DNA of 40,000 nt, taken from positions 1,211,019-1,251,018 of the forward strand of contig OW818649.1 in NCBI GenBank assembly GCA_942492945.1. Direction: 5' to 3'. A program made the translations under genes and the position numbers. Each line of letters opens with the position of its first letter. Positions within the stretch are counted from its first letter, which is position 1. The DNA comes from an uncultured Bacteroidales bacterium (GTDB taxonomy: Bacteria > Bacteroidota > Bacteroidia > Bacteroidales > UBA932). Of the stretch, positions 15,403 through 39,932 are shown in pieces. The notes beneath the pieces were generated by a model. That model did not search any database. It saw only the letters and a list, made by a program, of their open reading frames with translations, and had not been told where the DNA came from.

Positions 15403-15469
15403 AGTTAAATAAAACCGCCAAAGAACTTGCCACTTTCCAAAAATGTATTACTTTTACACCTCAATTCGC

Positions 15470-15543
15470 GGCGCGATAGCTCAGCTGGTTAGAGCGCATG
15501 ATTCATAATCATGAGGTCCCCAGTTCAATCCTGGGTCGCGCTA
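15470..15543 (+). tRNA. tRNA with CAU anticodon (elongator Met; a lysidine-modified Ile2 cannot be excluded)
   Basis: Hand-folded cloverleaf. The acceptor stem is GGCGCGA/TCGCGCT, the D arm is TAGCTCAGCTGGTTAGAGC, the anticodon stem-loop is CATGA-TTCATAA-TCATG and the T arm is CCCAG-TTCAATC-CTGGG. It lacks the initiator-type GGG/CCC anticodon stem. CCA is not encoded. Confidence 0.85.
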
Positions 15544-15544
15544 C

Positions 15545-15840
15545 AAGAATGAAGAACCCCACTTGCCAAAAGCAAGGGGGGTTTGTTATTTTGCTCCGGC
15601 CCGAGCTTGCTTGGGGGAGGAAGCAAAATAATAAACCATCAAGGCAAAGCCTTGGGGGTTCTTCATTTTTGGGCTGTTTTCTGCGACCTTTTCAGGATCA
15701 CGGCGCGCAGCGACGTAATCCTGGGAGCAGCAAAAATAAACCCCTAAGGGCATAGCCCGGAGGGGTTCTTCATTCTTGGGCTGTTTTCCGCGACCTTTTC
15801 AGGATCACCGACCAATGGGAGGTAATCCTGAAAAGGTCGC
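15545..15840. repeat. cluster of nested inverted and direct repeats 3' of the tRNA
   Basis: aagaatgaagaacccc (15545-15560) recurs as its reverse complement at 15655-15670 (1 mismatch) and at 15762-15777 (exact). A 47-bp direct repeat occupies 15655-15701 and 15762-15808. A perfect 16-bp inverted repeat is gcgaccttttcaggat (15790-15805) and atcctgaaaaggtcgc (15825-15840). Confidence 0.7.
15557..15581 (+). terminator. hairpin plus T-run directly after the tRNA
   Basis: ccccacttgc-caaaa-gcaagggggg is followed by tttgttatttt. Confidence 0.5.
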
Positions 15841-16060
15841 AGCGTTGTTAAATGTTCTTTTTTTGCAATAATGTTATTATCAATATATTGCACGACTATA
15901 TCAGATTGTGTAAATAAAACACGCACAGATAAAACAAAAAGCAGAGTACTATAGAAAAAGTGTAATTATATTTACTCGGAATGTTGATATTTATTTGCAT
16001 AATAAAACTTTGTTTTTTAAATTTACTGGGGTTAACAGATAAATTATAAACTATTTGCAC

Positions 16061-16768
16061 ATGAAATGTAATTTGAAAGTATTTGGTGTTTTATTTCTAC
16101 TTACAACGCTTGCCGTAGCCTGCAACAAAGAAGTAAGAGATCTTGTCAAACAGAAAGAGGAAGTAATGACTAGCGCAGACGGTATTACAGCGAAAGATTA
16201 TTATTGGTGCGAAGGACAAAAAATTTCATTAACAAGATTAGATAAAAAATCTTTTCTGATGTATCGCTCTTCGGACAGCTTGACTCTAATGTCATCACTC
16301 AATAAAATGGGGATTGAAGTAAATGCTTCTAACATTATGAAATATGGATATGGTGGCACAGATCTTTCTGGTGATGCTGCAAAATCATTATTAGACTGTC
16401 AATGGGCAAAAGTTGATATCAACCATATATCAGCCACTGCCATTCCGGAAGTCATTTACGCAGCTCCATATTATAAGTATTTGAGTGGATTTGAGTTTCC
16501 CTTGACAAATTTAGTATATGTTTACCTTAGAAAAGCCGAAGACATAACACTTTTGGAAAAGATTTCAAAAGAATATAATGTTGGTATAATAGGTAAAGTT
16601 CCCAATATACCACTTTGGTATGTTGTTGCTTGTACAAAGAAATCGAATGGTAACGCTTTAGCAGTAGCAAACTCATTTTATAAAAGCGGACTGTTTGATG
16701 GAGCTGAACCTGCGTTTATTTCAGCGACAGCTGCTTGTGCTTCTTTACTATCTGGATATAGTGATTAG
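16061..16768 (+). CDS. hypothetical lipoprotein
   Basis: The signal peptide has a lipobox (FLLTTLAVAC). No family was recognised. Start moved to ATG 16061. Confidence 0.55.
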   Translation: MKCNLKVFGVLFLLTTLAVACNKEVRDLVKQKEEVMTSADGITAKDYYWCEGQKISLTRLDKKSFLMYRSSDSLTLMSSLNKMGIEVNASNIMKYGYGGTDLSGDAAKSLLDCQWAKVDINHISATAIPEVIYAAPYYKYLSGFEFPLTNLVYVYLRKAEDITLLEKISKEYNVGIIGKVPNIPLWYVVACTKKSNGNALAVANSFYKSGLFDGAEPAFISATAACASLLSGYSD

Positions 16769-16884
16769 AGGCACAGAAACAACAAAACTAAAAAAAACAT
16801 ATAAAAAAAACAGAATTAAGAAAATCATCAGACCCCGTAAAATATCTCCAAAACTCTCATGTTCCAAAGGATTTGTTTATTTCA

Positions 16885-17552
16885 TTACGTCGTGGCATAA
16901 TGATTATTTCTTTTCTCAAATTCATCAATCCACTCTCTTAATTTCTGTTTTAACAACTGCTTCTCCGGCAAATAGAGCTTGTATTCTGAAGCATAAATTC
17001 TGACCACTGTTGATTATTGGCTTCAATCTCATAAAACTTCGTTCATCCGGATTGTTGATTCGCATCAATATTAAATAATGAGACCAACTTAGACTAAAAT
17101 TATTAAATTTTGAGAAGGCACATCTTGAATTTGAAACTCGCCAGACGGTAACTGACTAATTTCAATATCTTTATTTTCTGCGGTTTGTAATTTGGCAGAC
17201 ACCGTCTGCCAAATTACTCTTTCTTGATACATAAGAAAGAATTGACGCATATTTCTAAGATTTCGCTCTGAATACCCTTTGCCAAATTTTCCGGATAATT
17301 TTCCGGAAATTACTTTTAATGTATTATTTCCATAATCGGCACGGAGCATTCCTTGTTGTTCATCTTCAAAAATGTATTGCCCTATTCCAAAGTAAGTGTG
17401 TACCATTGTGAGGTTCACTGAAGAAACAACTCTTTGATGAGTTAGAACAATTAATTTTTCAATTGAAAGATTGTGAATCCCCTTTTCAATCTTATTTCTC
17501 TGTTTTGGCCCGGGTTTTTTATTCCCATTGCATATTGGCTCAGCAAACTCTC
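16885..17552 (-). pseudogene. decayed DUF1016 / YhcG-like PDDEXK nuclease gene
   Basis: The minus strand reads ...KIEKGIHNLSIEKLIVLTHQRVVSSVNLTMVHTYFGIGQYIFEDEQ...GKGYSERNLRNMRQFFLMY...IWQTVSAKL, which is DUF1016 N-terminal-like. It has no ATG and an upstream stop, and it ends prematurely at 17089. A separate C-terminal remnant (..IYASEYKLYLPEKQLLKQKLREWIDEFEK*) ends at 16885. The nuclease core between them is missing. Confidence 0.6.
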
Positions 17553-17772
17553 ATTAACACCAGTCAGAAATCCACGATCTGCCAGTTAAAATTATAGGTC
17601 GTTATTAATCAGTAATATATATAAGGTTCTCCACTTAATTTTTAGGGCAAAAAAATTTGTATGCGTCAGAAATTGAGCAATATGCAAAAACAACTGGCAG
17701 TTCAATCAAATAATTTTACACAAAACAGCACTCAAAGTGAAAAATTAATTCTAAATTTGGAAAAACAACATT

Positions 17773-19380: not shown

Positions 19381-20232
19381 ATGAGGGGAGAGATTAGGAA
19401 AGATATAGCCTTTTTTGAGGCATGGCTTACCGGGCATAGATACAGTGGCCGCACCATAGAAGTATATTTAAATGCAATAAATGTATTCCTAAATTATTTT
19501 GCAGATAAAGATCCGAACGAAATTACAAATTCTGACTTAGTTTTATTTAACAGAGATTATATCATTAAAAAAGGGTATTCGGTTTCTTACCAAAATCAGG
19601 TAATAAATGCCGTAAAACTCTATTTTCTCAAAATTGAGAAAAAGCAACTATTAGTAGAAGAAATTGAAAGGCCCAAAAAATACCGCCCACTCCCTAAAGT
19701 AATTTCCAAACAGATTGTTGAAAAAATGCTAGTTTCTATACCAAATTTTAAACATAAAACTGCTCTTACTCTCGTCTATGCCTGTGGATTAAGAAGAAGT
19801 GAAATTTTAAATTTGAAGCTCAAAGATTTGGATTCAAAACGAAAAACGCTTACAGTAATTAATGGAAAAGGGCAGAAAGACAGGGTGTTACCGCTGAGCG
19901 ATAAGCTGATGGATATGATAATCAGATATTATAAGATGTACAAACCCAAAGTTTATTTAATAGAAGGTCAGTTTGCCGGAGAGCAATACAGCGAAACAAG
20001 CATTGAGAATATTTTTCACAAATATTTGGGTAAAATATATAAAAATCATAGCTTTACACTGCATTGTCTGCGACACAGTTATGCCACACATCTTTTAGAG
20101 GCAGGAGTTAGTTTGAGGTACATTCAGGAGTTGTTGGGACACAAAAGTAGCAAGACAACGGAAATTTACACACACGTAAGCATGACAGGACTTCAAAATA
20201 TTAAAAACCCAGCCGATGATTTCGATTTATAG
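19381..20232 (+). CDS. tyrosine recombinase, Xer/IntI-like, without an IntI-type insertion
   Basis: 283 aa with a SAM-like N-terminal domain. The catalytic residues are in the usual order: ACGLRRSE (Arg), GKGQKDR (Lys), HCLRHSYATHLLEAG (His-x-x-Arg), LLGH and EIYTHV (Tyr). Only about 59 aa separate KDR from HCLRH, which is the Xer-type spacing. The tail reads G..NIKNPADD. Confidence 0.85.
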   Translation: MRGEIRKDIAFFEAWLTGHRYSGRTIEVYLNAINVFLNYFADKDPNEITNSDLVLFNRDYIIKKGYSVSYQNQVINAVKLYFLKIEKKQLLVEEIERPKKYRPLPKVISKQIVEKMLVSIPNFKHKTALTLVYACGLRRSEILNLKLKDLDSKRKTLTVINGKGQKDRVLPLSDKLMDMIIRYYKMYKPKVYLIEGQFAGEQYSETSIENIFHKYLGKIYKNHSFTLHCLRHSYATHLLEAGVSLRYIQELLGHKSSKTTEIYTHVSMTGLQNIKNPADDFDL

Positions 20233-20367
20233 AGATTGAACCTAACTCATACATTAATATTGAACTTAAAAGTACCTCAAAAATGAAATTTTATATTATT
20301 CAACAAACCTGTTCCAAGCCCCCCGCCGTTCTCCCCACTGGATTCACTTTGCTGAATACATAAACAA

Positions 20368-20374
20368 GTTATGC
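20368..20374 (+). other. first crossover core (attI-like junction), GTTATGC
   Basis: GTTATGCAA here is the exact reverse complement of TTGCATAAC at the end of cassette 1 (21639-21647). It lies 136 bp after the recombinase stop codon. Confidence 0.6.
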
Positions 20375-20416
20375 AAAAGCCAAAAAAAGGACACACTACC
20401 TATAAACTAAAAATAT

Positions 20417-21646: not shown

Positions 21647-21770
21647 CACGCAATTTACGTAAGCCGGGCGATGTGGGTAATTTAAACATTTGTACATTTA
21701 CTCAAATTGGTAACGGTTAGACAGGTGCAAGCTTCGAAATCCCGGCCTCCGCATATTGCAATCGTTATGG
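21641..21770 (+). repeat. attC-like site of cassette 1 (130 bp)
   Basis: The left core GCATAAC overlaps the stop codon and the right core is GTTATGG. The arms cataacacgcaat..aagccggg and cccggcc..attgcaatcgttatg pair imperfectly. Confidence 0.75.
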
Positions 21771-22052
21771 GTCAGTTGCGAAGGAATTAGTTGTTTAAGA
21801 TGCAATTGTTCAATTGTTTGCAGAAAGTGCTGATGATAAACAATTCAGAGAATAACGGCTAAGAAGAAAGGAGCAGAAGGAGGGAAGAAGTATATATTAT
21901 TAAAGAGACATTAAATTGTAGCTTACAGGAAAAGAGATAATAGACGAAACATACCATTATGAAAGCAACCGCACCCATAACACAAGGTACAGTTCAGCCA
22001 CCCGGCTGCATAAGGTTTATAGGAATAGGGTGGCCGCCCCGTACCCACGTCC
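21764..22052 (+). repeat. ORF-less 289-bp cassette, copy A
   Basis: It starts GTTATGGGT and ends at the next G|TT. It contains no ORF of 60 aa or more. It carries a 30-nt polypurine tract (21861-21890) and its own 85-bp attC. Confidence 0.8.
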
Positions 22053-22059
22053 GTTATGG
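21975..22059 (+). repeat. attC-like site of ORF-less cassette copy A (85 bp)
   Basis: ACCCATAAC is the reverse complement of the cassette start GTTATGGGT. The inner stem is gccaccc/gggtggc. The right core is GTTATGG. Confidence 0.75.
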
Positions 22060-22341
22060 GTCAGTTGCGAAGGAATTAGTTGTTTAAGATGCAATTGTTC
22101 AATTGTTTGCAGAAAGTGCTAATGATAAACAATTCAGAGAATAACGGCTAAGAAGAAAGGAGCAGAAGGAGGGAAGAAGTATATATTATTAAAGAGACAT
22201 TAAATTGTAGCTTACAGGAAAAGAGATAATAGACAAAACATACCATTATGAAAGCAACCGCACCCATAACACAAGGTACAGTTCAGCCACCCGGCTGCAT
22301 AAGGTTTATAGGAATAGGGTGGCCGCCCCGTACCCACGTCC
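22053..22341 (+). repeat. ORF-less 289-bp cassette, copy B (tandem duplicate)
   Basis: Near-identical to copy A by eye (2 substitutions noted) and the same 289-bp length. Confidence 0.8.
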
Positions 22342-22348
22342 GTTATAG
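22264..22348 (+). repeat. attC-like site of ORF-less cassette copy B (85 bp)
   Basis: Same as the copy A site, but the right core is GTTATAG, supplied by the next cassette. Confidence 0.75.
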
Positions 22349-24221: not shown

Positions 24222-24274
24222 CAGCAGCTTGCCTTCATGCTAGCGCACGAACTGCAAGCCGCAAAACGTTATGG
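24216..24274 (+). repeat. attC-like site (59 bp)
   Basis: GGTTTATAAC is the reverse complement of the cassette start GTTATAAACC (23563). The stem is gcagcttgc/gcaagccgc. The right core is GTTATGG. Confidence 0.8.
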
Positions 24275-24556
24275 GTCAGTTGCGAAGGAATTAGTTGTTT
24301 AAGATGCAATTGTTCAATTGTTTGCAGAAAGTGCTAATGATAAACAATTCAGAGAATAACGGCTAAGAAGAAAGGGGAAGAAGGAGGAAAGAAGTATATA
24401 TTATTAAAGAGACATTAAATTGTAGCTTACAGGAAAAGAGATAATAGACAAAACATACCATTATGAAAGCAACCGCACCCATAACACAAGGTACAGTTCA
24501 GCCACCCGGCTGCATAAGGTTTATAGGAATAGGGTGGCCGCCCCGTACCCACGTCC
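24268..24556 (+). repeat. ORF-less 289-bp cassette, copy C
   Basis: This third copy has the same length and boundaries, with a few substitutions in the polypurine tract. Confidence 0.8.
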
Positions 24557-24563
24557 GTTAGCG
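24479..24563 (+). repeat. attC-like site of ORF-less cassette copy C (85 bp)
   Basis: The left core is CCATAAC and the right core is GTTAGCG, supplied by the next cassette. Confidence 0.75.
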
Positions 24564-24603
24564 GTAATTAGAGATCACGACATAAAACAAAATAAATTAA
24601 TAA

Positions 24604-24864
24604 ATGGAACTACCTAGAGACAGGGTAATAATAGCAGGTGACGTGAGCGATAGAGACGGAATTGGAGTTGAAATTTATCGTGACAACAAGTTAGTAATCG
24701 AAATATTTCGTGATGACACAAAACGGACAAGAACTGTAACACTTTTTCAAAAAGACTTATCATTAGACTTACTCGAAGAAAGTATTGAGATTTTCAAAAA
24801 AGAAGTTCCTTGGGACTTTATTGAATATGATAATAATAATTTAGACAAGAATTTGAGAAAATAA
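24604..24864 (+). CDS. cassette ORF: hypothetical 86-aa acidic protein (copy 1 of 2)
   Basis: The protein is identical to the ORF at 39606-39866. No family recognised. Confidence 0.6.
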   Translation: MELPRDRVIIAGDVSDRDGIGVEIYRDNKLVIEIFRDDTKRTRTVTLFQKDLSLDLLEESIEIFKKEVPWDFIEYDNNNLDKNLRK

Positions 24865-24872
24865 TTAACTAC

Positions 24873-24930
24873 CGCTAACAGCAACTTGCATTCACGCTAA
24901 CGCGCAAACTGCAAGCCGCAACCGTTAGCA
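24873..24930 (+). repeat. attC-like site (58 bp)
   Basis: ACCGCTAAC is the reverse complement of the cassette start GTTAGCGGT (24557). The stem is gcaacttgca/tgcaagccgc. The right core is GTTAGCA. Confidence 0.8.
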
Positions 24931-26406: not shown

Positions 26407-27258
26407 ATGGAAATGCTAGTTGAGACAGCAGTAATAAATGGGATAAAGTATATAAAGGACGAAAACGAACATGTCTTTCTTGTACCTGTTACAAAGTTAG
26501 GTGACTTTCGTGCCATTGACTTACCAAGTCAATCAAGTTTACATGTAACGGGAATAGACCTTAATGACTTATCTCTTTATTTTTCAGTTGTTCACGGTGG
26601 CAATGGCTATGCATCAATATTTATCCTGTTTTCAATTCAATGTAACGATTATTCGGAAGGTAGTAGGCGAATTCACGAGACAGTTAATGCCATTGCAACA
26701 ATTGCATCCCCAAATTACCTTGACACTCCACGAATTGGGGCTGACCAGAACGACGATAACATGTGGAAACATTACGTTACTTACAGTTTTGATGAAGAAT
26801 TGTCCTGCAAAATAATTGTAAGAGAACTGGCAGAACAGATAATTTATGCATTGACAAATGCTAAACCAAGTATTCAAGCATTCCTTTGTCATTCTTCTGA
26901 AGATAAGCATATTGTAGAGCAATTTGCTTATAGACTTCGTTCAACAAAAAGCTATGTATGGTTTGACAAATGGGAAATTAAAGTTGGAGATAGTATTGTT
27001 GAAAAAATAAATGAAGGATTAGAGAAAATGACTCACTTGATTATTTTTTTATCAAAATCATCTGTTAATAAGCCTTGGGTGAAAAAAGAATTATCATCAG
27101 CATTAATGAGAAAACTAGAAGACAACTCTGTTAGGGTAATGCCGATAAAAATTAATGAATGTGATATTCCTGTAATAATAAAAGACATTAAATATGCTGA
27201 TTGCACGGAAGATTTTGAGAGTGGATTTAGTCAACTAATTGCTGACATCACAAACTAA
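26407..27258 (+). CDS. cassette ORF: TIR-domain protein with an unknown N-terminal domain
   Basis: The C-terminal roughly 125 aa read AFLCHSSEDKHIVEQFAYRLRS...VWFDKWEIKVGDSI...IIFLSKSSVNKPWVKKELSSAL, a bacterial TIR pattern that includes the conserved Glu (codon 27088-27090). The N-terminal roughly 155 aa were not recognised. Confidence 0.75.
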   Translation: MEMLVETAVINGIKYIKDENEHVFLVPVTKLGDFRAIDLPSQSSLHVTGIDLNDLSLYFSVVHGGNGYASIFILFSIQCNDYSEGSRRIHETVNAIATIASPNYLDTPRIGADQNDDNMWKHYVTYSFDEELSCKIIVRELAEQIIYALTNAKPSIQAFLCHSSEDKHIVEQFAYRLRSTKSYVWFDKWEIKVGDSIVEKINEGLEKMTHLIIFLSKSSVNKPWVKKELSSALMRKLEDNSVRVMPIKINECDIPVIIKDIKYADCTEDFESGFSQLIADITN

Positions 27259-27307: not shown

Positions 27308-27423
27308 GCCGCCAACACACAATATAAAACAGTTGGGGTTCACTGGTTTGCGAGGGTTTGGTTCTCGCGCCAGCATTCTTGTCGGTGGACAAGAACGCAG
27401 CCCGAAAACCCAACCGTTTCATA
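27308..27423 (+). repeat. attC-like site of the TIR cassette, 5' part (interrupted by a group II intron)
   Basis: GCCGCCAAC (27308-27316) is the reverse complement of the cassette start GTTGGCGGC (26349). The left arm tataaaacagttggggtt matches the reverse complement of aaacccaaccgtttcata (27406-27423). Confidence 0.6.
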
Positions 27424-29372
27424 GTGTGCCGAGAAGCAGAACAACGGCAAAAGAACGTTCTGCATGCTGTAATTGAGATGGTGGAAACAGTTTAAGTTGG
27501 CCCACCGATGCCGTCTTACAGGAGGGGGCATCAAACCACCTGAAGGTGCTTTGGTAAAGAGCCATGGTGCTGAGCGTTCAGGTTAAAAGTTGCACTATTA
27601 GTGTGGCTTGGTATGAATAAAGGAGTTGAACGAAAGTGAATCGCTGATGAGGTGTCGAGAAGTTGCCACACCCTGTCAAAAGCTACAGGGCTGAGCGTAA
27701 AAAACAGTCCAGGGAACTGTTTTTGCGAAGAGCCAAGCCGGTGGGCTGCGAACGGAGTTATAAGTTTAGCGGATACCTGATTTACTGGCTAAGCGGCAGG
27801 CGTCATACAGGCGACAAGACCTTTATTCAGGCTTAATTACGGAACTCGGGAACCTGCACGACAATGCCAAGGGAGGAACACAATGGGATCACCCCAGAGG
27901 TTTAAAACCGAAGAGCCGTGCAGGGACGGACTAACCCGTATTAGTGATGAAGTTCCTGTAATGGGAATGGAGCGAAGGGGTTAGGTTATACAGTATCATA
28001 ACATTTAACAACTCGCAAGAGGATGACTTTATGGAATGAGACAAGATCAGTACCGGTAAGCAAGGAACAAGTATGGCTTGCTTACAAGAAAGTGCGTTCC
28101 AACCAAGGGAGTGCCGGAGTCGACCAGATCAGCATGGAAGAATATGATGCAGAACGGTCTAAGCACTTGTACAAACTATGGAACAGGATGGCATCGGGGA
28201 GTTATTTTCCCCCACCTGTCAAAGAAGTTGAGATACCTAAGAAAGACGGTAAAGTCCGCAAACTTGGAATCCCAACCATCAGCGACCGTGTTGCACAAAT
28301 GGTCATCAAGGAATACCTTGAACCAAGGTTCGAACAAATATTCAGCCCGCACTCATACGGTTACCGTCCTGGCAAGAATGCCCATCAGGCGTTGTCTGCG
28401 GTCCGGGCAAACGTGCGAATGCTGGATTGGGCAATAGACCTTGACATTAAAGGTTTCTTCGACAATATTGACCACGAGAAGCTGATGCTTGCGTTGAAGA
28501 AACATGTAAACGAGAAGTGGTGCCTTATGTACATTAAGCGGTGGTTACAGACACCCGTGCAAACGATAACCGGAGAGCTAGTAGCGAAGCATGGGAAAGG
28601 TACACCACAGGGAGGAGTGATAAGCCCATTACTGGCCAACCTGTTTCTTCATTACGCCATGGACAAATGGTTGGAGAAAACCCACTCTGCGGTGAGGTAC
28701 GTGCGTTATGCCGATGATGCGATACTGCACTGCAAGAGCAAAGAACAGGCTGACTATGTGTTGCGCAACCTGAACAAACGGATGAGACAGTGCGGACTTG
28801 AACTGCACCCTGAAAAGACAAAGCTTGTTTACTGTAGGGACTACAGACGACAAGGTGAGTACTCGAATGTTAAGTTCGATTTTCTTGGGTACTCGTTTCA
28901 GCCTCGCACAGCAAAGTCGAAGAGGGACGGGGCACTGTACCTCGGCTACGACTGCGCCATCAGTATTAGTTCAAAGAAGCGTATTGCAGAAAAGATGAGA
29001 GAACAGGACATTGACCACCTGACGCACAAAAGCATAGTAGGGGTTGCCCAATTTCTGGAGCCGTATATCAGGGGATGGATCAATTACTACGGAAAGTTCA
29101 GGTTATGGGAGATGAATACGGTCTTTCAGCTTTTACGAAGACGGCTTGTAATGTGGGCACGGAAACGGTACAAGCGTTACAAGACGAGTATTAACCGGGC
29201 CTATAGTTGGCTTGAAAGAGTTAAAGAACAATATCCGACATTGTTTTACCAATGGAGGGTAGGTTTCTCGTAATGAATTGCTTAGATTTGTATAACAAGA
29301 GCCGTGTGATGGGAGACTATCAAGCACGGTTCTGTGAGAGGCTGGAGGGGAAGTTCCTCCGGCCTACTCGAC
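27424..29372 (+). mobile_element. group II intron (bacterial class C-like, no endonuclease domain) inserted in an attC
   Basis: The 5' end GTGTG lies about 600 nt upstream of the RT ORF in GC-rich structured sequence. Domain V is gagccgtgtgatgggagactatcaagcacggttc (29299-29332). The domain VI hairpin has a bulged A 7 nt from the proposed 3' end (..cctActcgac). The boundaries were set by hand and are accurate to within a few nt. Confidence 0.75.
28023..29273 (+). CDS. group II intron reverse transcriptase/maturase
   Basis: 416 aa with RT motifs (GVDQIS, IPKKDGKVRKLGIPTISDRV, GYRPGKNAHQA, TPQGGVISPLLANL, the YADD box in RYADDAILHC) followed by a maturase X domain (GWINYYG). There is no HNH/En domain. 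Confidence 0.9.
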   Translation: MTLWNETRSVPVSKEQVWLAYKKVRSNQGSAGVDQISMEEYDAERSKHLYKLWNRMASGSYFPPPVKEVEIPKKDGKVRKLGIPTISDRVAQMVIKEYLEPRFEQIFSPHSYGYRPGKNAHQALSAVRANVRMLDWAIDLDIKGFFDNIDHEKLMLALKKHVNEKWCLMYIKRWLQTPVQTITGELVAKHGKGTPQGGVISPLLANLFLHYAMDKWLEKTHSAVRYVRYADDAILHCKSKEQADYVLRNLNKRMRQCGLELHPEKTKLVYCRDYRRQGEYSNVKFDFLGYSFQPRTAKSKRDGALYLGYDCAISISSKKRIAEKMREQDIDHLTHKSIVGVAQFLEPYIRGWINYYGKFRLWEMNTVFQLLRRRLVMWARKRYKRYKTSINRAYSWLERVKEQYPTLFYQWRVGFS

Positions 29373-29388
29373 CCGCAAAACGTTATGT
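29373..29388 (+). repeat. attC-like site of the TIR cassette, 3' part with right core GTTATGT
   Basis: ccgcaaaacGTTATGT resembles the 3' arms of the attCs at 24259-24274 and 24916-24930. GTTATGTGCC starts the next cassette. Confidence 0.6.
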
Positions 29389-33561: not shown

Positions 33562-33565
33562 CGCC

Positions 33566-33627
33566 CTTCAACACAGGCTAAAAGTCAAGCGGGAAAACAC
33601 GCCAGCTTTTAGCCTGAAACGTTGTGT
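33566..33627 (+). repeat. attC-like site (62 bp)
   Basis: GCCCTTCAAC is the reverse complement of the cassette start GTTGAAGGGC (32956). The stem caggctaaaag/cttttagcctg is perfect. The right core is GTTGTGT. Confidence 0.85.
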
Positions 33628-33774
33628 TTCATGCTAAGAGAGACCGTGCAACAAATGCCAACGCACATTTGGCACATTTGCAAGCCCAAACCCACAAGCC
33701 GATGCTTCAGCTTGCAAAAGAGCCAAATTTTTGCCGACGCACTTCGCTGAGTTATAAAGAATAGAGTTTAAAAT

Positions 33775-36700
33775 ATGATAAAACTTAATTGGAATATATT
33801 TAAAGCAAAATTTGATGGACAAGAGACATCTATGTTCGAATTGTTAGCCTACCATCTATTTTGCGATGAATATAATATTCCAACTGGTATTTTTAGATTC
33901 AAAAACCAGACAGGAATAGAAACAGAACCAATTGAAAGAGATGGAGAATTGATTGGTTTTCAAGCGAAATTTTATGAATCAAAAGTTTCAGATAACAAGG
34001 ACGATATTATTGATTCCTTAAAAAAAGCAAAATCAAAAAATAAAGACTTAGATAAGATTCTTTTTTATCTAAATCAAGAGTTTTCAGAAAGTTCGAGTAA
34101 AGAAAAGAAAGACCCTAAAAACAAAATTGAAATTGAGGAAGAAGCTGAAAAATTAAATATTAAGTTAATATGGAAAGTCCAAAGTAATTTTGAGATTCAA
34201 CTTGCAAAACCCTCTATTTCATATTTAAGTGAGTACTTTTTTAGTAATGAAAAATCAAAAGTTGATTCACTAAAAGAGTTAGGTTTCCACGCCAAAAGTA
34301 TTTTAACTCCAATTCACTGTGATATAAAGTTTAAAGATGATAGAATTAAAATTGACAGGAACGAATTATTAATAGAAATAGAGTCTCAATTAAATACATC
34401 CAAATCAATTATAATTAGTGGAAATGGCGGGACTGGTAAAACAGCTTTAATAAAAGAACTTTATGATAGAAACAATGATAAGCCCTTTTATATTTTTAAA
34501 GCTAATGAATTTTTGGTAAAGCATATTAATGACTTATTTAAACCTTACTCTTTTACATTTGGGGACTTCTTGGATTGCCATGAAAATGAAACATCAAAGA
34601 TAGTTATAATTGATTCTGCCGAAAGATTATCTGAGATTGATAATAATGAACCGTTTAAAGAGTTTGTTGCTTCTTTAATTGAAAAAGATTGGTGCATTAT
34701 TTTCACAACAAGAAACATTTATCTTGATGATTTACGGTTTCAACTCATCCATGTATACAGATTGTCACCTAGGAATTTAAATTTAGAAAATTTGACGGAA
34801 GAAGAGCTAGATAAATTAGCTATAGATTATGGTTTTGTAATTCCTCCTGAAATAAGATTACGGCGGCTGATACGAAATCCCTTCTACCTAAATCAGTATT
34901 TGAATTTTTATTCTGTAGATAGTCAAAAGGCAAGCTATTCTGATTTCAAAACTAATCTGTGGAAAATTAAGATTCAAAATTCAACATACACAAAGAACAA
35001 TTTGCATATTGAAAGGGAAGAATGTTTTTTGTCTCTAGCAAATGACAGAAGCAAGAGTGGTAACTTCTATTCAAAAGGTGAAAGTTGTTCTCAGGAAGCC
35101 TTGTCTTTACTTCAACTTGAAGAAATTATTGAATATAGTTCATCAAATTCAGGATATTTCATTACTCATGACATATATGAGGAATGGGCTCTTGATTTAA
35201 TAATTGAAAAAAACTATCAAGAACATAAAGGAAATGTAGACCTGTTTTTTAAAGAACTTGGTACTTCGCTTTCAATTCGAAGAGCTTTTAGATTGTGGAT
35301 TACAAATACAATAATTATTAACCCGAATGATGTAGAAGAAATAATTGAAGAAGTAATCTATTCAAGTATTATTGATGCTTCATGGAAAGACGAAGTTTTA
35401 ATATCCATATTACTTTCAGAAATGTCTAATACTTTCTTTGAAGAAAGGAAAGTATTACTGTTCAAAGATGATTTCAAGCTTTTAAAAAGAATCATTTTCT
35501 TGTTAAGAACAGCTTGTAAGGAAGTTAATGAATCATTGATGAGGGTTTTAAAAGGTAATGATGAAGATATAAGTCCAGAATATATTTTTACAATACCCAA
35601 AGGTTCTGGGTGGTGTGCTATAATTAATTTGGTCTACAGTGAACTTGAATCTTTTAAAATTGAAGATGTGTCATTCTTAATTCCGTTGCTTAAAGAATGG
35701 AATGATGAATTTAAAACAGGTATTGTTACAAGAAGTTCAACTAAAATAGCTTTAAAGTTTTATGAGGATATTACTTCCGAAAAGGAAGCATATAGATATT
35801 CCGATTTATCAACAGACTTGGTGAAAATTATAATTCAAGGAGCTAATGAAGTCACAAAAGAATTACGCATAATATTTGAACAAGTAATTAAAAACAAGTG
35901 GTATAAGCATAGTTCACCCTATAACAAACTTTGTAAAGATATACTTACAAAGACTAATGAAAACATCCCAGTCATTAAAGCGTTGCCAATTGAAGTCATG
36001 AAACTAGCTGATTTATTCTGGTTTAATCATGATACTGAAGATGATAGGTTTGGCTACGGAGGGATTGATATGGAACAATATTATTCGTTGAATAAAAATG
36101 GCTTAGATTACTATCCTACAAGTGCTTTACAAACTCCTATTTACTGGTTACTTCGTTTCTCTCCAAAGGATACTTTTGATTTCATCATAAGTTTTACAAA
36201 TAAAGCTGTAGAAGCTTTTTCTAAATCAAAATATGGTGATACTGTTGAATTAATTGATATTCATCTTGATAATGGTAAAATACAAAAACAATTTGTAAGT
36301 GATGCAATATGGTCAATGTATAGAGGAACAGGTTCACCAGTGACCCCAAAAGTATTACAGTGTATTCATATGGCACTAGAAAAATACTTATTAGAAACTG
36401 CTAAATTTGATGATAATGGCAATCTTTCAGGTTGGTTTAAATATTTAATACGGAACTCCAAATCTGCTTCAATAACAGCTGTTGTTGCCAGTGTTGTAAT
36501 TGCGAATCATGATAAGTATTATGATACAGCCGAAATACTTTTTAAAACACTTCAATTATTCTCGTATGATATGCAACGTGTATTATCAGAGCATATCGCC
36601 AAGTTTATGTATGGTATGGGCTATGGCTTAAATCAGAGGCACAAAACTTTCGCTGATGAAAGAGTTAAAACTTTAGAAGACCCTCAGAGGAAAGTATCAT

Positions 36701-38484
36701 TAGAAAATATTGCTTTAAACTACCAATTTTTTAAGACAGAGGGAATCGAAGACGAAGAAGTCGAAAGAAGGCAAAATTCGATATGGACAATCATCGATGA
36801 ACATAATAAGCAGAAATTAAATAATACTCAAAAACTTCTAATTGCTAGGATTGATAGGCGAAAGATGAAGCCTAAAATTGAACAAAAAGATGATAAATTA
36901 TTGATTGATTTTAATCCAGAAATTGAACCAGAGTTAAAGAAGTATAGTGAAGAAAGTCAAGCAGAGTATTCTGATTATTTTAAGTTCTCAGCATTAAGTG
37001 CATGGAGTAGAAATAAGTTCGACCAGAAACAGGATATTTCACAGTATACCCAATATGAAAATAATCCAAAATTGGTTTTTAAAGAAATTAATGAGTTATT
37101 GAATCCTGAAATTGCTAAAAACAATCATTTTGATTTTTCAACAGCAGCTTTTGCAAGCTATGTACTTCTTAAAGAACATTCCAACGTTTTAGATGCAAAA
37201 GAACTTGAATTGTGTCGGGATATAATTCATGATTTTGCAATTGCTCCGTTAAAAGAAGGTTATGGATATCAAATATCAGATGGTGTTGAAGTAGCAATAA
37301 ATTCTATTCCTTTGTTATATAGTATATTCCCTAATGCTAAATTGGAGTATAACACACTTTTACTTTTCATTTTATTTGATGAGTATCCAATAGGTGAGTA
37401 TAAGCGTGTTTGTGATTATTCAATAGAAGCAATTGTTAATTCCCTTTGGGATAAGTCAGAGGAAGATGCATTAAAAATTATTATTGCTTTTCTGAAAACT
37501 AAGCCCTTACTAAATGAATTTATCGAAACAATGGAAGGTGATGATAATAATCCTTACATTCATAGAAAACCGCAAGCCTATATAATTGAAAAGTTTTCTG
37601 AAAAATATGAAAAAGAATTAGAAAGCATATTCAAAGTTGATTTTGCAAAGTTAAACTTAGCTGATTTTGATATAAATTCCTTTAAGCTAATTGATTTAGA
37701 TACAATAATCCAATTAGTTCCGAATGACTCAAAGAACAAGTTTATCAATGAATTAATTTTAAAGGTACTACCTACTCTTTGTGAGCAATTATTAAAGGAA
37801 GAAAGGGAAAGTAACTTAATTAGGCTAAGATTTAGTTTCTTCAAGAAAATATGCTCCTTCATTTTAAATTTAGATTCTAAAAATATACCTCTCTACATTT
37901 CACCTTTCGCTGATAATCTTGCTTCAAGTGAAGAAACTAAATACTTATTAGAGGAATTTATTTCAACAGAATGTAGAATAAAAAGCTATGAGCAGTTTTG
38001 GTTAGTTTGGGATGAGTTTTATAATTCAATATTTAAAACCGTAAAAACAGGTGGTTATCACACAAAAGAAATAGTTCATAGCTATTTGCTTGCTTGGCCT
38101 TGGTGGGGGAAAGAAGATAAGCAATGGTATTCACTTAAATCTAGAGACAAGAGATTCTATAAGAAAATTGTGTCAGAATTAGGTGATAATGTTTTTGTTT
38201 TAGATTCAATATCTCAAATTCTTAATCAGATTGGAAGTGAGTTTATAAATGATGGTATTATTTGGATAAGTGATATGCTAGGAAAACATAAAAATCTATG
38301 GAGTGATAAATTGGGAATAAATACTATTTATTATTTGGAGATACTAATTCGCAGGTTTTTATATATCAATAGGGCAAAAGTTAGAAGAGAAAAAGACCTA
38401 AAAGAACGTGTTCTAACAATTCTTCATTTCTTAATTGAGAAAAGTTCTGTTAATGCATATCTTCTTCGAGAAGAAATCTTATAA
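33775..38484 (+). CDS. cassette ORF: 1569-aa P-loop NTPase with an N-terminal putative effector domain and a very long helical C-terminal region
   Basis: Walker A is ISGNGGTGKTALIKEL (GNGGTGKT at 34420-34443). Walker B is KIVIIDSAE (34597-34623). The roughly 200 aa before the P-loop include ..ETEPIERDGELIGFQAKFY.., a possible but weak PD-(D/E)xK-like motif. More than 1200 aa of unrecognised, helix-prone sequence follow. Confidence 0.75.
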   Translation: MIKLNWNIFKAKFDGQETSMFELLAYHLFCDEYNIPTGIFRFKNQTGIETEPIERDGELIGFQAKFYESKVSDNKDDIIDSLKKAKSKNKDLDKILFYLNQEFSESSSKEKKDPKNKIEIEEEAEKLNIKLIWKVQSNFEIQLAKPSISYLSEYFFSNEKSKVDSLKELGFHAKSILTPIHCDIKFKDDRIKIDRNELLIEIESQLNTSKSIIISGNGGTGKTALIKELYDRNNDKPFYIFKANEFLVKHINDLFKPYSFTFGDFLDCHENETSKIVIIDSAERLSEIDNNEPFKEFVASLIEKDWCIIFTTRNIYLDDLRFQLIHVYRLSPRNLNLENLTEEELDKLAIDYGFVIPPEIRLRRLIRNPFYLNQYLNFYSVDSQKASYSDFKTNLWKIKIQNSTYTKNNLHIEREECFLSLANDRSKSGNFYSKGESCSQEALSLLQLEEIIEYSSSNSGYFITHDIYEEWALDLIIEKNYQEHKGNVDLFFKELGTSLSIRRAFRLWITNTIIINPNDVEEIIEEVIYSSIIDASWKDEVLISILLSEMSNTFFEERKVLLFKDDFKLLKRIIFLLRTACKEVNESLMRVLKGNDEDISPEYIFTIPKGSGWCAIINLVYSELESFKIEDVSFLIPLLKEWNDEFKTGIVTRSSTKIALKFYEDITSEKEAYRYSDLSTDLVKIIIQGANEVTKELRIIFEQVIKNKWYKHSSPYNKLCKDILTKTNENIPVIKALPIEVMKLADLFWFNHDTEDDRFGYGGIDMEQYYSLNKNGLDYYPTSALQTPIYWLLRFSPKDTFDFIISFTNKAVEAFSKSKYGDTVELIDIHLDNGKIQKQFVSDAIWSMYRGTGSPVTPKVLQCIHMALEKYLLETAKFDDNGNLSGWFKYLIRNSKSASITAVVASVVIANHDKYYDTAEILFKTLQLFSYDMQRVLSEHIAKFMYGMGYGLNQRHKTFADERVKTLEDPQRKVSLENIALNYQFFKTEGIEDEEVERRQNSIWTIIDEHNKQKLNNTQKLLIARIDRRKMKPKIEQKDDKLLIDFNPEIEPELKKYSEESQAEYSDYFKFSALSAWSRNKFDQKQDISQYTQYENNPKLVFKEINELLNPEIAKNNHFDFSTAAFASYVLLKEHSNVLDAKELELCRDIIHDFAIAPLKEGYGYQISDGVEVAINSIPLLYSIFPNAKLEYNTLLLFILFDEYPIGEYKRVCDYSIEAIVNSLWDKSEEDALKIIIAFLKTKPLLNEFIETMEGDDNNPYIHRKPQAYIIEKFSEKYEKELESIFKVDFAKLNLADFDINSFKLIDLDTIIQLVPNDSKNKFINELILKVLPTLCEQLLKEERESNLIRLRFSFFKKICSFILNLDSKNIPLYISPFADNLASSEETKYLLEEFISTECRIKSYEQFWLVWDEFYNSIFKTVKTGGYHTKEIVHSYLLAWPWWGKEDKQWYSLKSRDKRFYKKIVSELGDNVFVLDSISQILNQIGSEFINDGIIWISDMLGKHKNLWSDKLGINTIYYLEILIRRFLYINRAKVRREKDLKERVLTILHFLIEKSSVNAYLLREEIL

Positions 38485-38641
38485 AAACTAAATGGAGTAC
38501 GAATTATGAATATAAAACAGCCACCCCTTCGCACCCATACACATTGCCAAGTCGCTCAAAAGAGCCAACACACAGACCTAAACTTGTCAAAGAGTATGGT
38601 TGCCCGAACGCACGAACTGACGGAGGAAATAAAGCACGAAA

Positions 38642-38773
38642 ACACAACATCGTGTATAGTTCATTTGGCGGATGGTGTTAATTTTAAGGGTGTTGCATTT
38701 AATAAACGGTGTTGCGGTTTGATAGGTTGGTGCTTCGATTCGCCAAACGACACCATACACATAACCGTTATGC
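38642..38773 (+). repeat. attC-like site (132 bp)
   Basis: AAACACAAC is the reverse complement of the cassette start GTTGTGTTT (33621). The arms are atcgtgtatag..tttggcg and cgccaaacg..catacacat. The right core is GTTATGC. Confidence 0.7.
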
Positions 38774-39429: not shown

Positions 39430-39565
39430 GTATAACACGTGGCAAAAAATACTGGGGTTAGACCTTACAGATGCGGGGGTTTTATTACTTTTAACTAAGT
39501 TTCTAACGGCGGATAAATGTTCTGTTTCTAACTCCCCAACATTTCTTGCCACGGAAACGTTAGCG
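39430..39565 (+). repeat. attC-like site (136 bp)
   Basis: GGTGTATAAC differs by 1 mismatch from the reverse complement of the cassette start GTTATGCACC (38767). The arms are acgtggcaaaaaatactgggg and ccccaacatttcttgccacg. This site is homologous to the attC at 22881-23013. The right core is GTTAGCG. Confidence 0.8.
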
Positions 39566-39605
39566 GTAATTAGAGATCACGACATAAAACAAAATAAATT
39601 AATAA

Positions 39606-39866
39606 ATGGAACTACCTAGAGACAGGGTAATAATAGCAGGTGACGTGAGCGATAGAGACGGAATTGGAGTTGAAATTTATCGTGACAACAAGTTAGTAAT
39701 CGAAATATTTCGTGATGACACAAAACGGACAAGAACTGTAACACTTTTTCAAAAAGACTTATCATTAGACTTACTCGAAGAAAGTATTGAGATTTTCAAA
39801 AAAGAAGTTCCTTGGGACTTTATTGAATATGATAATAATAATTTAGACAAGAATTTGAGAAAATAA
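39606..39866 (+). CDS. cassette ORF: hypothetical 86-aa acidic protein (copy 2 of 2)
   Basis: The protein is identical to 24604-24864. The whole 367-bp cassette (39559-39925) appears to repeat 24557-24923. Confidence 0.6.
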   Translation: MELPRDRVIIAGDVSDRDGIGVEIYRDNKLVIEIFRDDTKRTRTVTLFQKDLSLDLLEESIEIFKKEVPWDFIEYDNNNLDKNLRK

Positions 39867-39874
39867 TTAACTAC

Positions 39875-39932
39875 CGCTAACAGCAACTTGCATTCACGCT
39901 AACGCGCAAACTGCAAGCCGCAACCGTTACCA
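39875..39932 (+). repeat. attC-like site (58 bp)
   Basis: Same as 24873-24930, except the right core is GTTACCA, supplied by a different downstream cassette that runs off the window. Confidence 0.8.

Follow-up and report, generated by a model that had tools for sequence, protein, structure and literature searches.

An avs4 antiphage gene in a probable integron-type cassette of a Bacteroidales bacterium, flanked by predicted paralogous hairpins that recur around other large defence cargos

The window, i.e. the whole stretch of 40,000 nucleotides that was analysed, belongs to the chromosome of a Bacteroidales bacterium and carries an array of about 18 attC-bounded cassettes, one of which encodes a 1569-aa copy of the antiphage sensor Avs4. 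Eighteen units, all in the same orientation, were delimited by chain-rule analysis. The Avs4 cassette is the 16th of them, about 13 kb from an attI-like site (...ACATAAACAAG|TT) located, together with a tyrosine recombinase gene, at the array head. The features are as follows.

19381-20232: tyrosine recombinase, 283 aa, at the array head, in the same orientation as the array
33563-33627, + strand: attC of the preceding cassette, with R'' GCCCTTCAAC at 33563-33572 and R' GTTGTGT at 33621-33627
33622-38767, + strand: probable Avs4 cassette, 5146 bp, comprising a leader, a single ORF, a trailer and an attC
33622-33656, + strand: leader module A, TTGTGTTTCATGCTAAGAGAGACCGTGCAACAAAT, directly after the crossover point
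33657-33741, + strand: predicted leader hairpin element, delimited from a covariance model, covariation, folding and identity with Pustulibacterium marinum
33742-33774, + strand: AT-rich untranslated 5' segment that is specific to the cargo, with 69% identity to P. marinum
33775-38484, + strand: avs4 gene, intact, 1569 aa, assigned from curated profiles and alignment with PDB 8DGF
33940-33969, + strand: predicted nuclease motif DGELIGFQAK (D56, E58, Q63, K65), aligned without gap with KDNEIIGWQSK of EcAvs4
34420-34443, + strand: Walker A GNGGTGKT, aa 216-223 including K222, aligned with GEGGVGKT of EcAvs4
34603-34623, + strand: Walker B VIIDSAE, aa 277-283, aligned with VVVDSAE of EcAvs4
38525-38612, + strand: predicted trailer hairpin element, supported by a match to the leader model R1, covariation and the bottom-strand DNA fold
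38613-38639, + strand: conserved trailer tail up to R'', with the consensus ...GGAGAATAAAGCACGAA in related cassettes (21-cassette trailer alignment)
38640-38773, + strand: attC of the Avs4 cassette, with R'' AAACACAAC at 38640-38648 and R' GTTATGC at 38767-38773

The cassette borders rest on the chain rule, according to which the stretch of 10 nt that begins with the G of the upstream R' is the reverse complement of the R'' of the cassette's own attC, and on comparison with related loci. A search for attC sites by folding energy alone (AAC...GTT pairs, constrained fold) was abandoned, as it failed to tell the array apart from housekeeping DNA. The chain rule is satisfied at 9-10 of the 10 positions in 17 of the 18 units, as G|TT recombination predicts, and the matching cores are therefore not a product of chance; the Avs4 unit itself scores 9/10 (GTTGTGTTTC / AAAACACAAC). 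A sequence-only reading of this DNA had proposed an integron cassette bounded by such cores and holding a single 1569-aa ORF. The cores, the ORF and the protein motifs were all found in the sequence: GTTGTGTTT and AAACACAAC occur once each, at 33621 and 38640, and the end coordinate given by that reading, 38773, is the last base of the R' core GTTATGC. The remaining units of the array measure 289-1546 bp, except one that carries a group II intron; setting the latter aside, the Avs4 cassette is more than three times larger than the next largest unit, in keeping with the unusual size already remarked upon. It thus differs from the compact, promoterless, small-ORF cassettes of about 0.5-1 kb both by its 5146 bp and by its structured flanks of 153 nt (33622-33774) and 155 nt (38485-38639).

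The two attC sites that delimit this unit differ in quality. On its bottom strand, the preceding attC, whose crossover after G33621 forms the 5' border of the Avs4 cassette, folds cleanly into a hairpin (-15.5 kcal/mol; z -3.5 without constraint, z -5.7 when the R box is constrained), and its chain rule is 10/10. The attC of the Avs4 cassette has boxes ACACAAC ... GTTATGC and L arms GTGTAT..TTTGGCG and CGCCAAA..ATACAC, and its constrained bottom-strand fold is attC-like, with an imperfect stem of about 20 bp. This fold (-11.0 kcal/mol, z -1.9; -14.9 in the circular form) is the weakest among the seven array attC sites tested, and the unconstrained minimum-energy structure is not attC-like and no better than that of shuffled sequences (z -0.02), so that the recombination competence of this site is uncertain. 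In other cassettes, the trailer is likewise followed by homologous attC sites, with 72-89% identity; the inner attC helix CGTTACA/TGTAACG, present in relatives, is lost here.

A related locus of P. marinum is homologous to the window from 33621 to 38726, homology beginning at the G of GTTGTGT. This copy has equal borders, unrelated flanks and an attI-like site upstream, and the DNA upstream of the Avs4 cassette is unrelated in three contexts. Such equal borders in a second context point to the mobility of the cassette, which would move by G|TT recombination between folded attC sites. Identity between the window and P. marinum amounts to 92.8% in the leader, 83.2% in the trailer and only 76.9% in the coding sequence. 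Another locus (L001) carries a 97% identical avs4 gene and the same leader but a different attC. In a scan of a genome collection that did not include the window's own genome, the cassette form was found only in P. marinum. Taken as a whole, the interval 33622-38767 is very probably an integron-type gene cassette that holds a complete avs4 and a conserved hairpin chassis in its flanks.

The encoded protein is a full-length Avs4 (AVAST type 4), a further member of a known family. The sequence-only reading had described an NTPase of STAND/Avs type with a long sensor region that could not be assigned to any named system. The architecture was correctly recognized, and a name can now be given: the protein matches the Avs4 equivalog NF041815 of NCBIfam with 1984.8 bits (cutoff 1500; residues 5-1569 against profile positions 1-1579), and PADLOC, which had been suggested as a check, returns Avs4 end to end with 1899.6 bits (residues 1-1569 against 1-1570 of 1570). 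It also aligns along its whole length with PDB 8DGF_A, the structure of EcAvs4 in complex with a phage portal (1075 bits, 1-1569 against 1-1587), with conserved Walker motifs. More than 1300 homologues were found, several of which carry the NCBI name Avs4; these named homologues are 43-54% identical. Pfam alone yields only sub-threshold P-loop matches, including a weak nSTAND3 (E 4e-5, below the gathering score), which explains why the protein could not be named at first reading. Likewise, no Pfam nuclease domain reaches threshold; the proposal of a PD-(D/E)xK-like N-terminal effector nevertheless holds, since the D..E..GFQAK pattern then judged weak (GFQAK at aa 61) coincides with the D56-x-E58-x4-Q63-x-K65 arrangement of EcAvs4, within a predicted Mrr-like nuclease domain of about aa 1-200.

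The two proteins belong to the same length class (1569 and 1587 aa), are co-linear throughout and share the N-terminal Mrr-like D-x-E-x4-Q-x-K nuclease, the STAND Walker A and B motifs and the long helical sensor region; they differ by sequence divergence and by the host, here a Bacteroidales bacterium. The present gene is also carried in an attC-bounded cassette with structured flanks, whereas its more distant homologues occupy ordinary chromosomal or defence-island contexts. In EcAvs4, sensing of the portal leads to tetramerisation and to activation of the Mrr nuclease (bioRxiv 10.64898/2026.04.30.721860; 10.64898/2026.08.25.746987). By homology, including for portal recognition and nuclease activity, the following mechanism can be drawn for the present protein, which would act as a single-protein antiphage sensor. 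The long helical C-terminal region, all of which aligns with the solved EcAvs4-portal complex and is a predicted portal sensor, would bind the portal protein of a tailed phage. This binding would lead the STAND ATPase at the centre of the protein (K222 in Walker A, D280 in Walker B) to drive tetramerisation, which would bring together the N-terminal Mrr-like PD-(D/E)xK domains (D56, E58, Q63, K65). The joined nuclease domains would then cleave DNA without discrimination, and the infection would be aborted.

The flanks of avs4 have a GC content of 43-45%, versus 29% in the gene. Their unusual length had been noticed from the letters alone, and comparison indicates that they are conserved, structured and common to other defence cassettes: leader and trailer are predicted to form paralogous two-helix hairpins of about 85 nt, in direct orientation and supported by covariation. 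In the leader, the order is GCCAACGCAC, P1 (33667-33673 / 33722-33728), an internal loop ACA/AGA, P2 (33677-33685 / 33710-33718) with a 24-nt loop, then TTTTTGCCGACGCA. This element scores 116 bits against the covariance model R1; 97.6% of the cells are paired, versus 27-54% when the partners are slid, and five pairs are changed on both sides, a result reached by 0 of 500 shuffles. As RNA, it folds with z -3.1 on the + strand and z -3.8 on the - strand. The trailer hairpin likewise comprises P1 (38535-38540 / 38594-38599), an ACA/AGA internal loop and P2 (38544-38552 / 38582-38590), and is recognised from end to end, in the same strand, by model R1 of the leader (24.3 bits, E 6e-5). In this second element, 91.4% of the cells are paired, versus 26-40% after sliding, and seven pairs are changed on both sides; it folds well as bottom-strand DNA (z -3.0) and poorly from the top strand (RNA z -1.7, DNA z -0.7). 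In both hairpins, the internal loop and the flanking GCC..ACGCA motifs are conserved while the stems covary. Neither leader nor trailer matches an Rfam family at the gathering threshold, and only chance-level matches appear up to E 10.

Two smaller candidates did not hold. The 12-mer CAAAAGAGCCAA that the sequence-only reading had found in both flanks is real, but lies at 33715 and 38557-38568 instead of 33713 and 38556. A shared word of at least 12 nt appears in 11 of 5000 mononucleotide shuffles of both flanks. The 12-mer does not mark homologous positions, as its leader copy spans the 3' arm of P2 whereas its trailer copy lies in the loop, and the actual repeat between the flanks is the whole hairpin element. 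An inner hairpin of the leader loop (AAGCTGA/TCAGCTT) was rejected because its left arm varies without compensation and because it competes with P2.

The leader recurs well beyond avs4. A 22-mer from it was found on 54 metagenome contigs, where different ORFs follow the leader and the trailer reappears 1.5-4 kb downstream; as copies were picked by this exact 22-mer, the sample is biased, with few unascertained copies (L039_3281, L046_6748). Leader, trailer and a related attC surround at least 26 different cargos, found in metagenomes, in P. marinum and on one plasmid of Fulvitalea. Of 26 cargo sets, 20 are recognised by defence models of PADLOC, among them Gabija, Hachiman, Lamassu, SIR2-HerA, Tmn, Upx, Ppl and R-M systems, and three more encode STAND, KAP or HD-CE+GHKL domains. 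A STAND protein of 1250-1260 aa, present at three loci, is one of the uncharacterised cargos. Module A is kept at the start of most leader-bearing cassettes, some having shortened or replaced versions. Conservation across cassettes of differing cargo ends at ...GCCGACRC, and the junctions (...GCCGACRC | cargo | GCCANCCCTTCGCA...) are constant in more than 25 cargos, the conserved leader stopping about 20-100 nt before the start codons and the trailer beginning about 10-40 nt past the stop codons. These comparisons indicate that the flanks are not spacer but a conserved non-coding chassis that brackets many large defence cargos in Bacteroidota. Full-text literature searches found no description of a non-coding chassis shared by large defence cassettes.

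Like the defence cassettes of the sedentary chromosomal integrons of Vibrio and the BRiCs of mobile integrons, the Avs4 unit is an attC-bounded gene in a co-oriented array with a tyrosine recombinase, and it shares with integron defence cassettes the G|TT recombination and the occurrence of one cassette in different genomes. Its phylum and its conserved leader and trailer set it apart from known integron defence cassettes. Integron-borne defence systems were reported to be streamlined, to have at most two components and to be smaller than equivalents located outside integrons (Darracq et al. preprint), whereas the chassis carries full-size systems of 2-5 kb (the 1569-aa Avs4, a Hachiman of 275+1118 aa, Gabija) and also a SIR2-HerA with a third gene. 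Complete integrons were, in addition, reported to be rare in Bacteroidota (IntegronFinder 2.0 preprint). The chassis resembles the VCR and VXR attC families of Vibrio in being a conserved non-coding repeat common to cassettes of unrelated cargo. However, the conserved part of VCR-type arrays is the attC itself, while here the attC arms beyond R'' belong to several subtypes and the strong conservation lies in two hairpins outside the attC that flank the cargo. Two similar imperfect direct hairpins near the ends of a short block may also recall the ends of IS200/IS605 elements, PATEs and REP/BIME sequences, as do the absence of terminal inverted repeats and the conserved unpaired nucleotides and flanking motifs combined with covarying stems. 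Unlike elements of the IS200/IS605 type, the block contains an attC, is seen only inside attC arrays and has its hairpins outside the variable cargo and not inside; no HUH transposase was found near it.

The recombinase encoded at the array head departs from known integrons. It scores below the cutoffs for integron integrases (TIGR02249, 168.8 versus 265, in two stretches; NF040815, 197 versus 220) and shows gaps of 29 and 14 residues opposite the IntI1-specific insertion. Its homologues are annotated as XerD or tyrosine recombinase, and homologous recombinases lie directly upstream of leader-bearing cassettes at five other loci and on the Fulvitalea plasmid. It is predicted to be an Xer-like enzyme devoid of the IntI-specific insertion. 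Unlike in known integrons, it has the same orientation as the array. Given its 283 aa, its sub-cutoff scores and the gaps at the IntI1 insertion, the platform is not a canonical integron.

The most likely roles of the chassis hairpins are the expression, stabilisation or insulation of a cargo transcript far from the array promoter and help in folding exceptionally long cassettes as single strands and in mobilising them. Action at the RNA level is a possible, still tentative reading: together, the hairpins would make up a module of untranslated sequence, 5' and 3', that travels with the cargo as a stabiliser, insulator or regulator and would allow correct expression of large and potentially toxic defence genes anywhere in the array. 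The AAATTTTTG box may provide a promoter for it, in which case the transcript would start just after ...AAATTTTTGCCGACGCAC. The hairpins exactly bracket the transcribed cargo at the distances from start and stop codons given above, the top strand of the leader folds significantly as RNA, and a cassette so distant from the array head would need its own expression signals. The leader contains three -7-like boxes that fit five of the six specified positions of TAnnTTTG, but a -33 element at the right spacing is absent; the full Bacteroidota consensus TTG-N18-22-TAnnTTTG has three matches in the window, none of them in the leader (a sigma-70 promoter scan was set aside because the host belongs to the Bacteroidales). 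Moreover, no U-tract directly follows either hairpin, and they are therefore not standard terminators. The poor top-strand and good bottom-strand folds of the trailer and the lack of an Rfam match also count against this role, as do the one-sided changes, which give G.T pairs on the bottom strand in five sequences and on the top strand in two, although these numbers are small.

It is less probable that the hairpins act as single-stranded DNA together with the attC and thereby aid the recombination of long cassettes or their formation. In a circular cassette, trailer, attC and leader would be joined into one contiguous block of about 440 nt that has hairpins close to both of its ends and may be, or derive from, an attC-carrying module. 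In a variant of this scheme, any gene lying between two copies of the block would, once excised by attC x attC recombination, become a leader-cargo-trailer-attC unit with precise, invariant junctions. The constancy of the junctions in more than 25 cargos fits such a process, and so do the direct paralogous hairpins, as conserved loops and flanks combined with covarying stems are typical of folded DNA ends recognized by proteins. Both elements fold better as bottom-strand DNA, and the bottom strand is the recombinogenic strand of attC sites; this evidence on strand is weak. Published work reports that attC x attC recombination drops as cassette length grows (Darracq et al. preprint); cassettes with the chassis measure 2-5 kb. 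Against this scheme, the roughly 0.6 Mb of loci examined yielded neither a solo nor an empty block, no transposase or dedicated enzyme was identified, and homologous recombination between conserved flanks could also spread an existing chassis. It is doubtful that the trailer-attC-leader block is a module, perhaps itself mobile, dedicated to making large cassettes and setting them in motion.

A further and rather unlikely reading regards the Avs4 unit as silent, stored or in decay, fixed in a sedentary array with a weakened attC and retained as a mere reservoir. Its place as the 16th of 18 units fits published work in which distal integron cassettes are mostly silent, and its attC has lost the inner helix and folds worst of the seven tested. 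This reading is at odds with the intact 4.7-kb ORF and its full set of catalytic motifs, with the copies at 97% and 74% identity, which are intact too, and with a constraint on the leader that is stronger than that on the coding sequence. Finally, the notion that this is no cassette but an ordinary defence-island gene lying by chance between two attC-like sequences could draw on the atypical size and on the distant Avs4 homologues (37-65% identity) of 11 other genomes, which lack the attC signature, leader and trailer, but it is highly improbable, being already contradicted by the chain rule and by the P. marinum borders at an attI-like site, with more than 25 other cargos in the same arrangement besides.

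The protein itself is thus ordinary, one more Avs4, and the wider interest lies in its context. The current picture of integron-borne defence as necessarily small and streamlined is contradicted by attC arrays of Bacteroidota whose cassettes, 2-5 kb long, hold STAND sensors of full size and systems of several genes. How genes become integron cassettes is an old question, and the constancy of the chassis-cargo junctions makes it directly testable. If the block were a cassette-making module, it would offer a concrete and testable route for the genesis of integron cassettes and would explain why one non-coding chassis surrounds more than 25 full-size defence systems of Bacteroidota. The pair of hairpins is also a purely non-coding signature that, in this sample, almost always accompanies a defence system, and it could therefore be used for the discovery of new defence genes by guilt by association, in a phylum whose integrons are poorly charted. 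Its value as a non-coding marker of defence cargo is supported, and extends to the uncharacterised proteins of 529, 1079 and 134+1287 aa found within the chassis.

The ORF at 33775-38484 encodes a 1569-aa protein that carries the Walker A (GNGGTGKT, residue 216), Walker B (VIIDSAE, residue 277) and GFQAK (residue 61) motifs described in the sequence-only reading. That reading had assigned the protein to no named system, which does not stand: two curated libraries name it Avs4 outright, as it matches the PADLOC Avs4 profile (1899.6 bits, residues 1-1569 on profile positions 1-1570 of 1570) and the NCBIfam equivalog NF041815 ("AVAST type 4 anti-phage nuclease Avs4"; 1984.8 bits for a cutoff of 1500). 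The P-loop and nSTAND3 matches found with Pfam are all sub-threshold. The sole solved relative, 8DGF chain A ("ATP-binding protein Avs4"), aligns end to end (1-1569 with 1-1587, 1075 bits), with GNGGTGKT opposite GEGGVGKT, VIIDSAE opposite VVVDSAE and, for the nuclease motif, RDGELIGFQAKFY opposite KDNEIIGWQSKFY. Therefore, the PD-(D/E)xK-like N-terminal pattern that had been called weak is a conserved motif, D56/E58/Q63/K65, and the STAND/Avs-type architecture initially proposed is borne out by the full-length profile matches and this alignment. More than 1300 relatives were retrieved, the closest sharing 97% (a 5-kb Logan contig), 74% (Pustulibacterium marinum) and 65% identity; several of those below about 55% carry the NCBI name Avs4. 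By these matches, the protein is classified as a further member of the already known Avs4 family; the initial finding is real and its interpretation essentially right. In EcAvs4, the portal protein is sensed, the ATP-bound STAND domains tetramerise, and the Mrr nuclease at the N terminus is thereby assembled and switched on (bioRxiv 10.64898/2026.04.30.721860, 10.64898/2026.08.25.746987). By analogy, the window Avs4 would sense a portal protein, tetramerise through its STAND domains and activate its Mrr nuclease.

MutL, IspF and the other housekeeping proteins encoded in the first 14 kb cluster with proteins from Bacteroidales/Bacteroidetes MAGs. The Avs4 unit is an unusually large predicted defence cassette, located in an attC array that belongs to a Bacteroidota genome and has a Xer-like recombinase.

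Recombinase, attachment sites, intron and flank hairpins of the window
19381-20232, plus strand: tyrosine recombinase of 283 aa, same direction as the cassettes
20350-20375: attI-like site, ...ACATAAACAAG followed by TTATGC (G at 20368), after the recombinase and before the cassettes
27417-29383, strand of the cassette genes: group II intron, at the R' end of the attC of the TIR-domain cassette
33657-33741: leader core, with in that order GCCAACGCAC, P1 (ATTTGGC/GCCAAAT), 3x3 internal loop (ACA/AGA), P2 (TTTGCAAGC/GCTTGCAAA), 24-nt loop and TTTTTGCCGACGCA
in the 3' flank of avs4: trailer hairpin, in leader-like order CGCAC, CCATAC/GTATGG, ACA/AGA, TTGCCAAGT/ACTTGTCAA, GCC..ACGCA
38640-38773: attC of the Avs4 cassette, R'' ACACAAC, R' GTTATGC, arms GTGTAT..TTTGGCG and CGCCAAA..ATACAC

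Downstream of the attI-like site lie 18 co-oriented units, each ending with an attC-like inverted repeat. In 17 of them, the ten bases starting from the G of the upstream R' are the reverse complement (9-10/10) of the R'' of the unit's own attC, as predicted for recombination between G and TT; the sole exception is the unit split by the group II intron. The Avs4 unit (33622-38767) was rightly noticed for its size: it reaches 5146 bp, compared to 289-1546 bp for the others, the intron-bearing unit aside. The matching cores reported at its ends occur once each (GTTGTGTTT at 33621 and its reverse complement AAACACAAC at 38640). Its 5' border is the R' of the preceding 62-nt attC, which folds well. 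With the R box constrained, the bottom strand of its own attC folds as attCs do, into a hairpin whose open loop measures 70 nt; its z of -1.9 is the weakest among the seven array attCs tested (-2.8 to -5.7 for the others, constrained), and its unconstrained fold is not significant. Comparison of loci argues more strongly for a cassette than does this folding. The P. marinum locus is homologous to window 33621-38726 (76% overall), and homology begins precisely at the G of GTTGTGT; the unrelated DNA on its 5' side ends with ...ATATAAACGAG followed by TT, an attI-like sequence that recurs 5' of the first cassettes at other loci. The more distant Avs4 genes of eleven other genomes lack both the flanks and the border signature; one Avs4 lineage was therefore recruited into a cassette. 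One of these distant genes adjoins a PLD nuclease and a further STAND NTPase.

The recombinase matches integron-integrase profiles in two stretches and below their curated cutoffs. These matches, together with its 283-aa length and its apparent gaps opposite the IntI1-specific insertion, lead to the conclusion that it would be devoid of the IntI insertion. Its relatives at 59-88% identity, annotated as XerD or tyrosine recombinases, abound in Bacteroidales metagenomes and are mostly 283 aa long, some more distant ones reaching 300-470 aa. In five metagenome loci, homologues (40-54% identity) are encoded immediately 5' of leader-bearing cassettes, on the same strand. Complete integrons are described as rare in Bacteroidetes (IntegronFinder 2.0 preprint). 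The array and its recombinase may be an integron-like platform overlooked by standard IntI-based tools.

The flanks of avs4 are, as first described, long and untranslated (153 and 155 nt; 43-45% GC vs 29% in the gene). Between the window and P. marinum, the leader (92.8% identity) and the trailer (83.2%) compare with 76.9% for the coding sequence and 69.4% for the attC. Over 41 distinct copies of the leader hairpin, 97.6% of cells are paired vs 27-54% with partners slid, and five pairs are altered on both sides (0/500 shuffles as high as the observed values). A diverged copy (6748-6834 of metagenome locus L046), found without the 22-mer used for sampling, has wholly different yet complementary arms (TTTGGTTTTGC/GCAAAACCAAA and AAATGGC/GCCATTT). 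The trailer shows covariation of its own, with 91.4% of cells paired and both sides altered in seven pairs, mostly through two related sequences. A covariance model built from leaders only matches the window trailer over its full length on the same strand (24.3 bits, E 6e-5), as it does the trailers of over a dozen loci. The cargo is therefore bracketed by two paralogous hairpins in direct orientation. The 12-mer CAAAAGAGCCAA that had been seen in both flanks is indeed common to them, at 33715 and 38557, i.e. 2 and 1 bases from where it had been placed, and a common word of this length arises in 11/5000 shuffles of the flanks. It is a trace of the kinship of leader and trailer, though its two copies occupy non-homologous positions. 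No Rfam family matched either element.

The leader sample, drawn by exact match to a 22-mer, comprises 54 matches in metagenome contigs, which are without taxonomy. The hairpin is found in all these contigs except one (L069), truncated in a few, and in most the leader follows an R' or an attI-like core, with various ORFs on its 3' side. In at least 16 of the 54, the trailer recurs 1.5-4 kb 3' of the leader, followed by related attCs with identical R'' (...AAAGCACGAAAACACAAC). Plasmid pFA5 of Fulvitalea axinellae also carries the leader, 5' of a gene for a 1092-aa KAP NTPase and 3' of one annotated "site-specific tyrosine recombinase/integron integrase". The contig encoding the 97% identical Avs4 (L001, region 4880-5053) keeps the window leader and, of the trailer, the initial ~115 nt; past this point its attC is of another type (R'' ...GGTAACAAAGAACTGAG), similar to that found second at the P. 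marinum locus, which suggests that the attC would be exchangeable behind the trailer hairpin. In three loci (L028 1744-2583, L055 and L058), the leader precedes a degenerate remnant of the start of the HEC-05 (DUF262) cargo, followed in L058 by RND efflux genes; they resemble decayed cassettes located where an array ends. Full-text literature searches found no account of a common leader and trailer, or of an integron cassette carrying Avs4.

PADLOC defence models are matched (profile matches) by 20 of the 26 distinct cargo sets examined that carry these flanks: one set each for Avs4, Upx, HEC-05 (DUF262), Tmn, SIR2 and Hachiman, two each for Ppl, SIR2-HerA, Gabija and type II R-M, three for Lamassu, a UvrD helicase with a DarT-like protein, an MBL protein with E1-E2/JAB, and one weak "cll" match. 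Three further sets have domains typical of defence proteins, namely HD-CE with a GHKL ATPase, a KAP NTPase, and a 1260-aa nSTAND3/NB-ARC STAND protein, bracketed by leader and trailer, that is present in six loci (including L033 772-4554) and matches no PADLOC model. No domain was detected in three of the 26 sets. Proteins of 1079 aa (L031 4777-8016), 529 aa (L053 1163-2752) and 134+1287 aa (L045 287-4556) also lie between leader and trailer, with no PADLOC match. By association, these and the L033 cargo are candidates for defence systems not yet characterised. Leader and trailer form a conserved hairpin chassis, without Rfam match, that the Avs4 cassette has in common with many other systems assigned to defence by profile match. 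Published surveys describe the defence systems borne by integrons as small: their components number two at most, and their genes are compacted (Darracq et al. preprint).

A single-stranded DNA role of the flanks beside attC fits the better DNA folds of the bottom strand (z -3.1 vs -2.5 for the leader, -3.0 vs -0.7 for the trailer) and its slight excess of G.T pairs. An RNA-level module for expression, stability or insulation also fits, as the hairpins sit around transcribed cargo and a cassette far from the array head needs expression; however, neither a complete Bacteroidota promoter consensus nor a terminator-like U-tract was found. Lastly, a circular cassette would join trailer, attC and leader in a block of ~440 nt that has a hairpin close to either end, which, with the invariant chassis-cargo junctions, suggests a module whose two copies around a gene could make it a cassette, but no solo or empty block occurs in the ~0.6 Mb of loci examined.

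Elsewhere in the array, cassette 26407-27258 is likely a second defence cassette; its 283-aa product has a TIR domain at the C terminus (PADLOC PDC-S66, 6.5e-22; retron-TIR-like NF042941, 7.5e-24). The leader of this cassette is short (GTTGGCGGCAAGGCTGAGAGACAGTGCAAACTTGA) and similar to leader module A and to the 5' part of the leaders in three metagenome loci (L036, L037 and L061). The group II intron comprises Rfam matches RF01999 (27480-27611) and RF00029 (29297-29372) and an RT/maturase ORF (28023-29273); the true border of the next cassette, ...GCAAAACG followed by TTATGTGCC, lies at ~29383. Group II introns associated with attC have been described in the opposite orientation. A 289-bp ORF-less cassette with an 85-nt attC (CACCCATAAC...GTTATGG) is present in three copies (21765-22053, 22054-22342 and 24269-24557), two of them nearly identical in tandem, and a 367-bp cassette (86-aa ORF, 58-nt attC) occurs twice, 15 kb apart (24558-24924 and 39560-39926). 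Between ispF and a thioredoxin-like gene, an AT-rich region (13800-17770, 27-36% GC) contains a tRNA-Met (15470-15544), a 263-aa ORF matching no family and, on the minus strand, a DUF1016 (PDDEXK-type) gene fragment (17092-17418); it may be left over from an element that had inserted at this tRNA.
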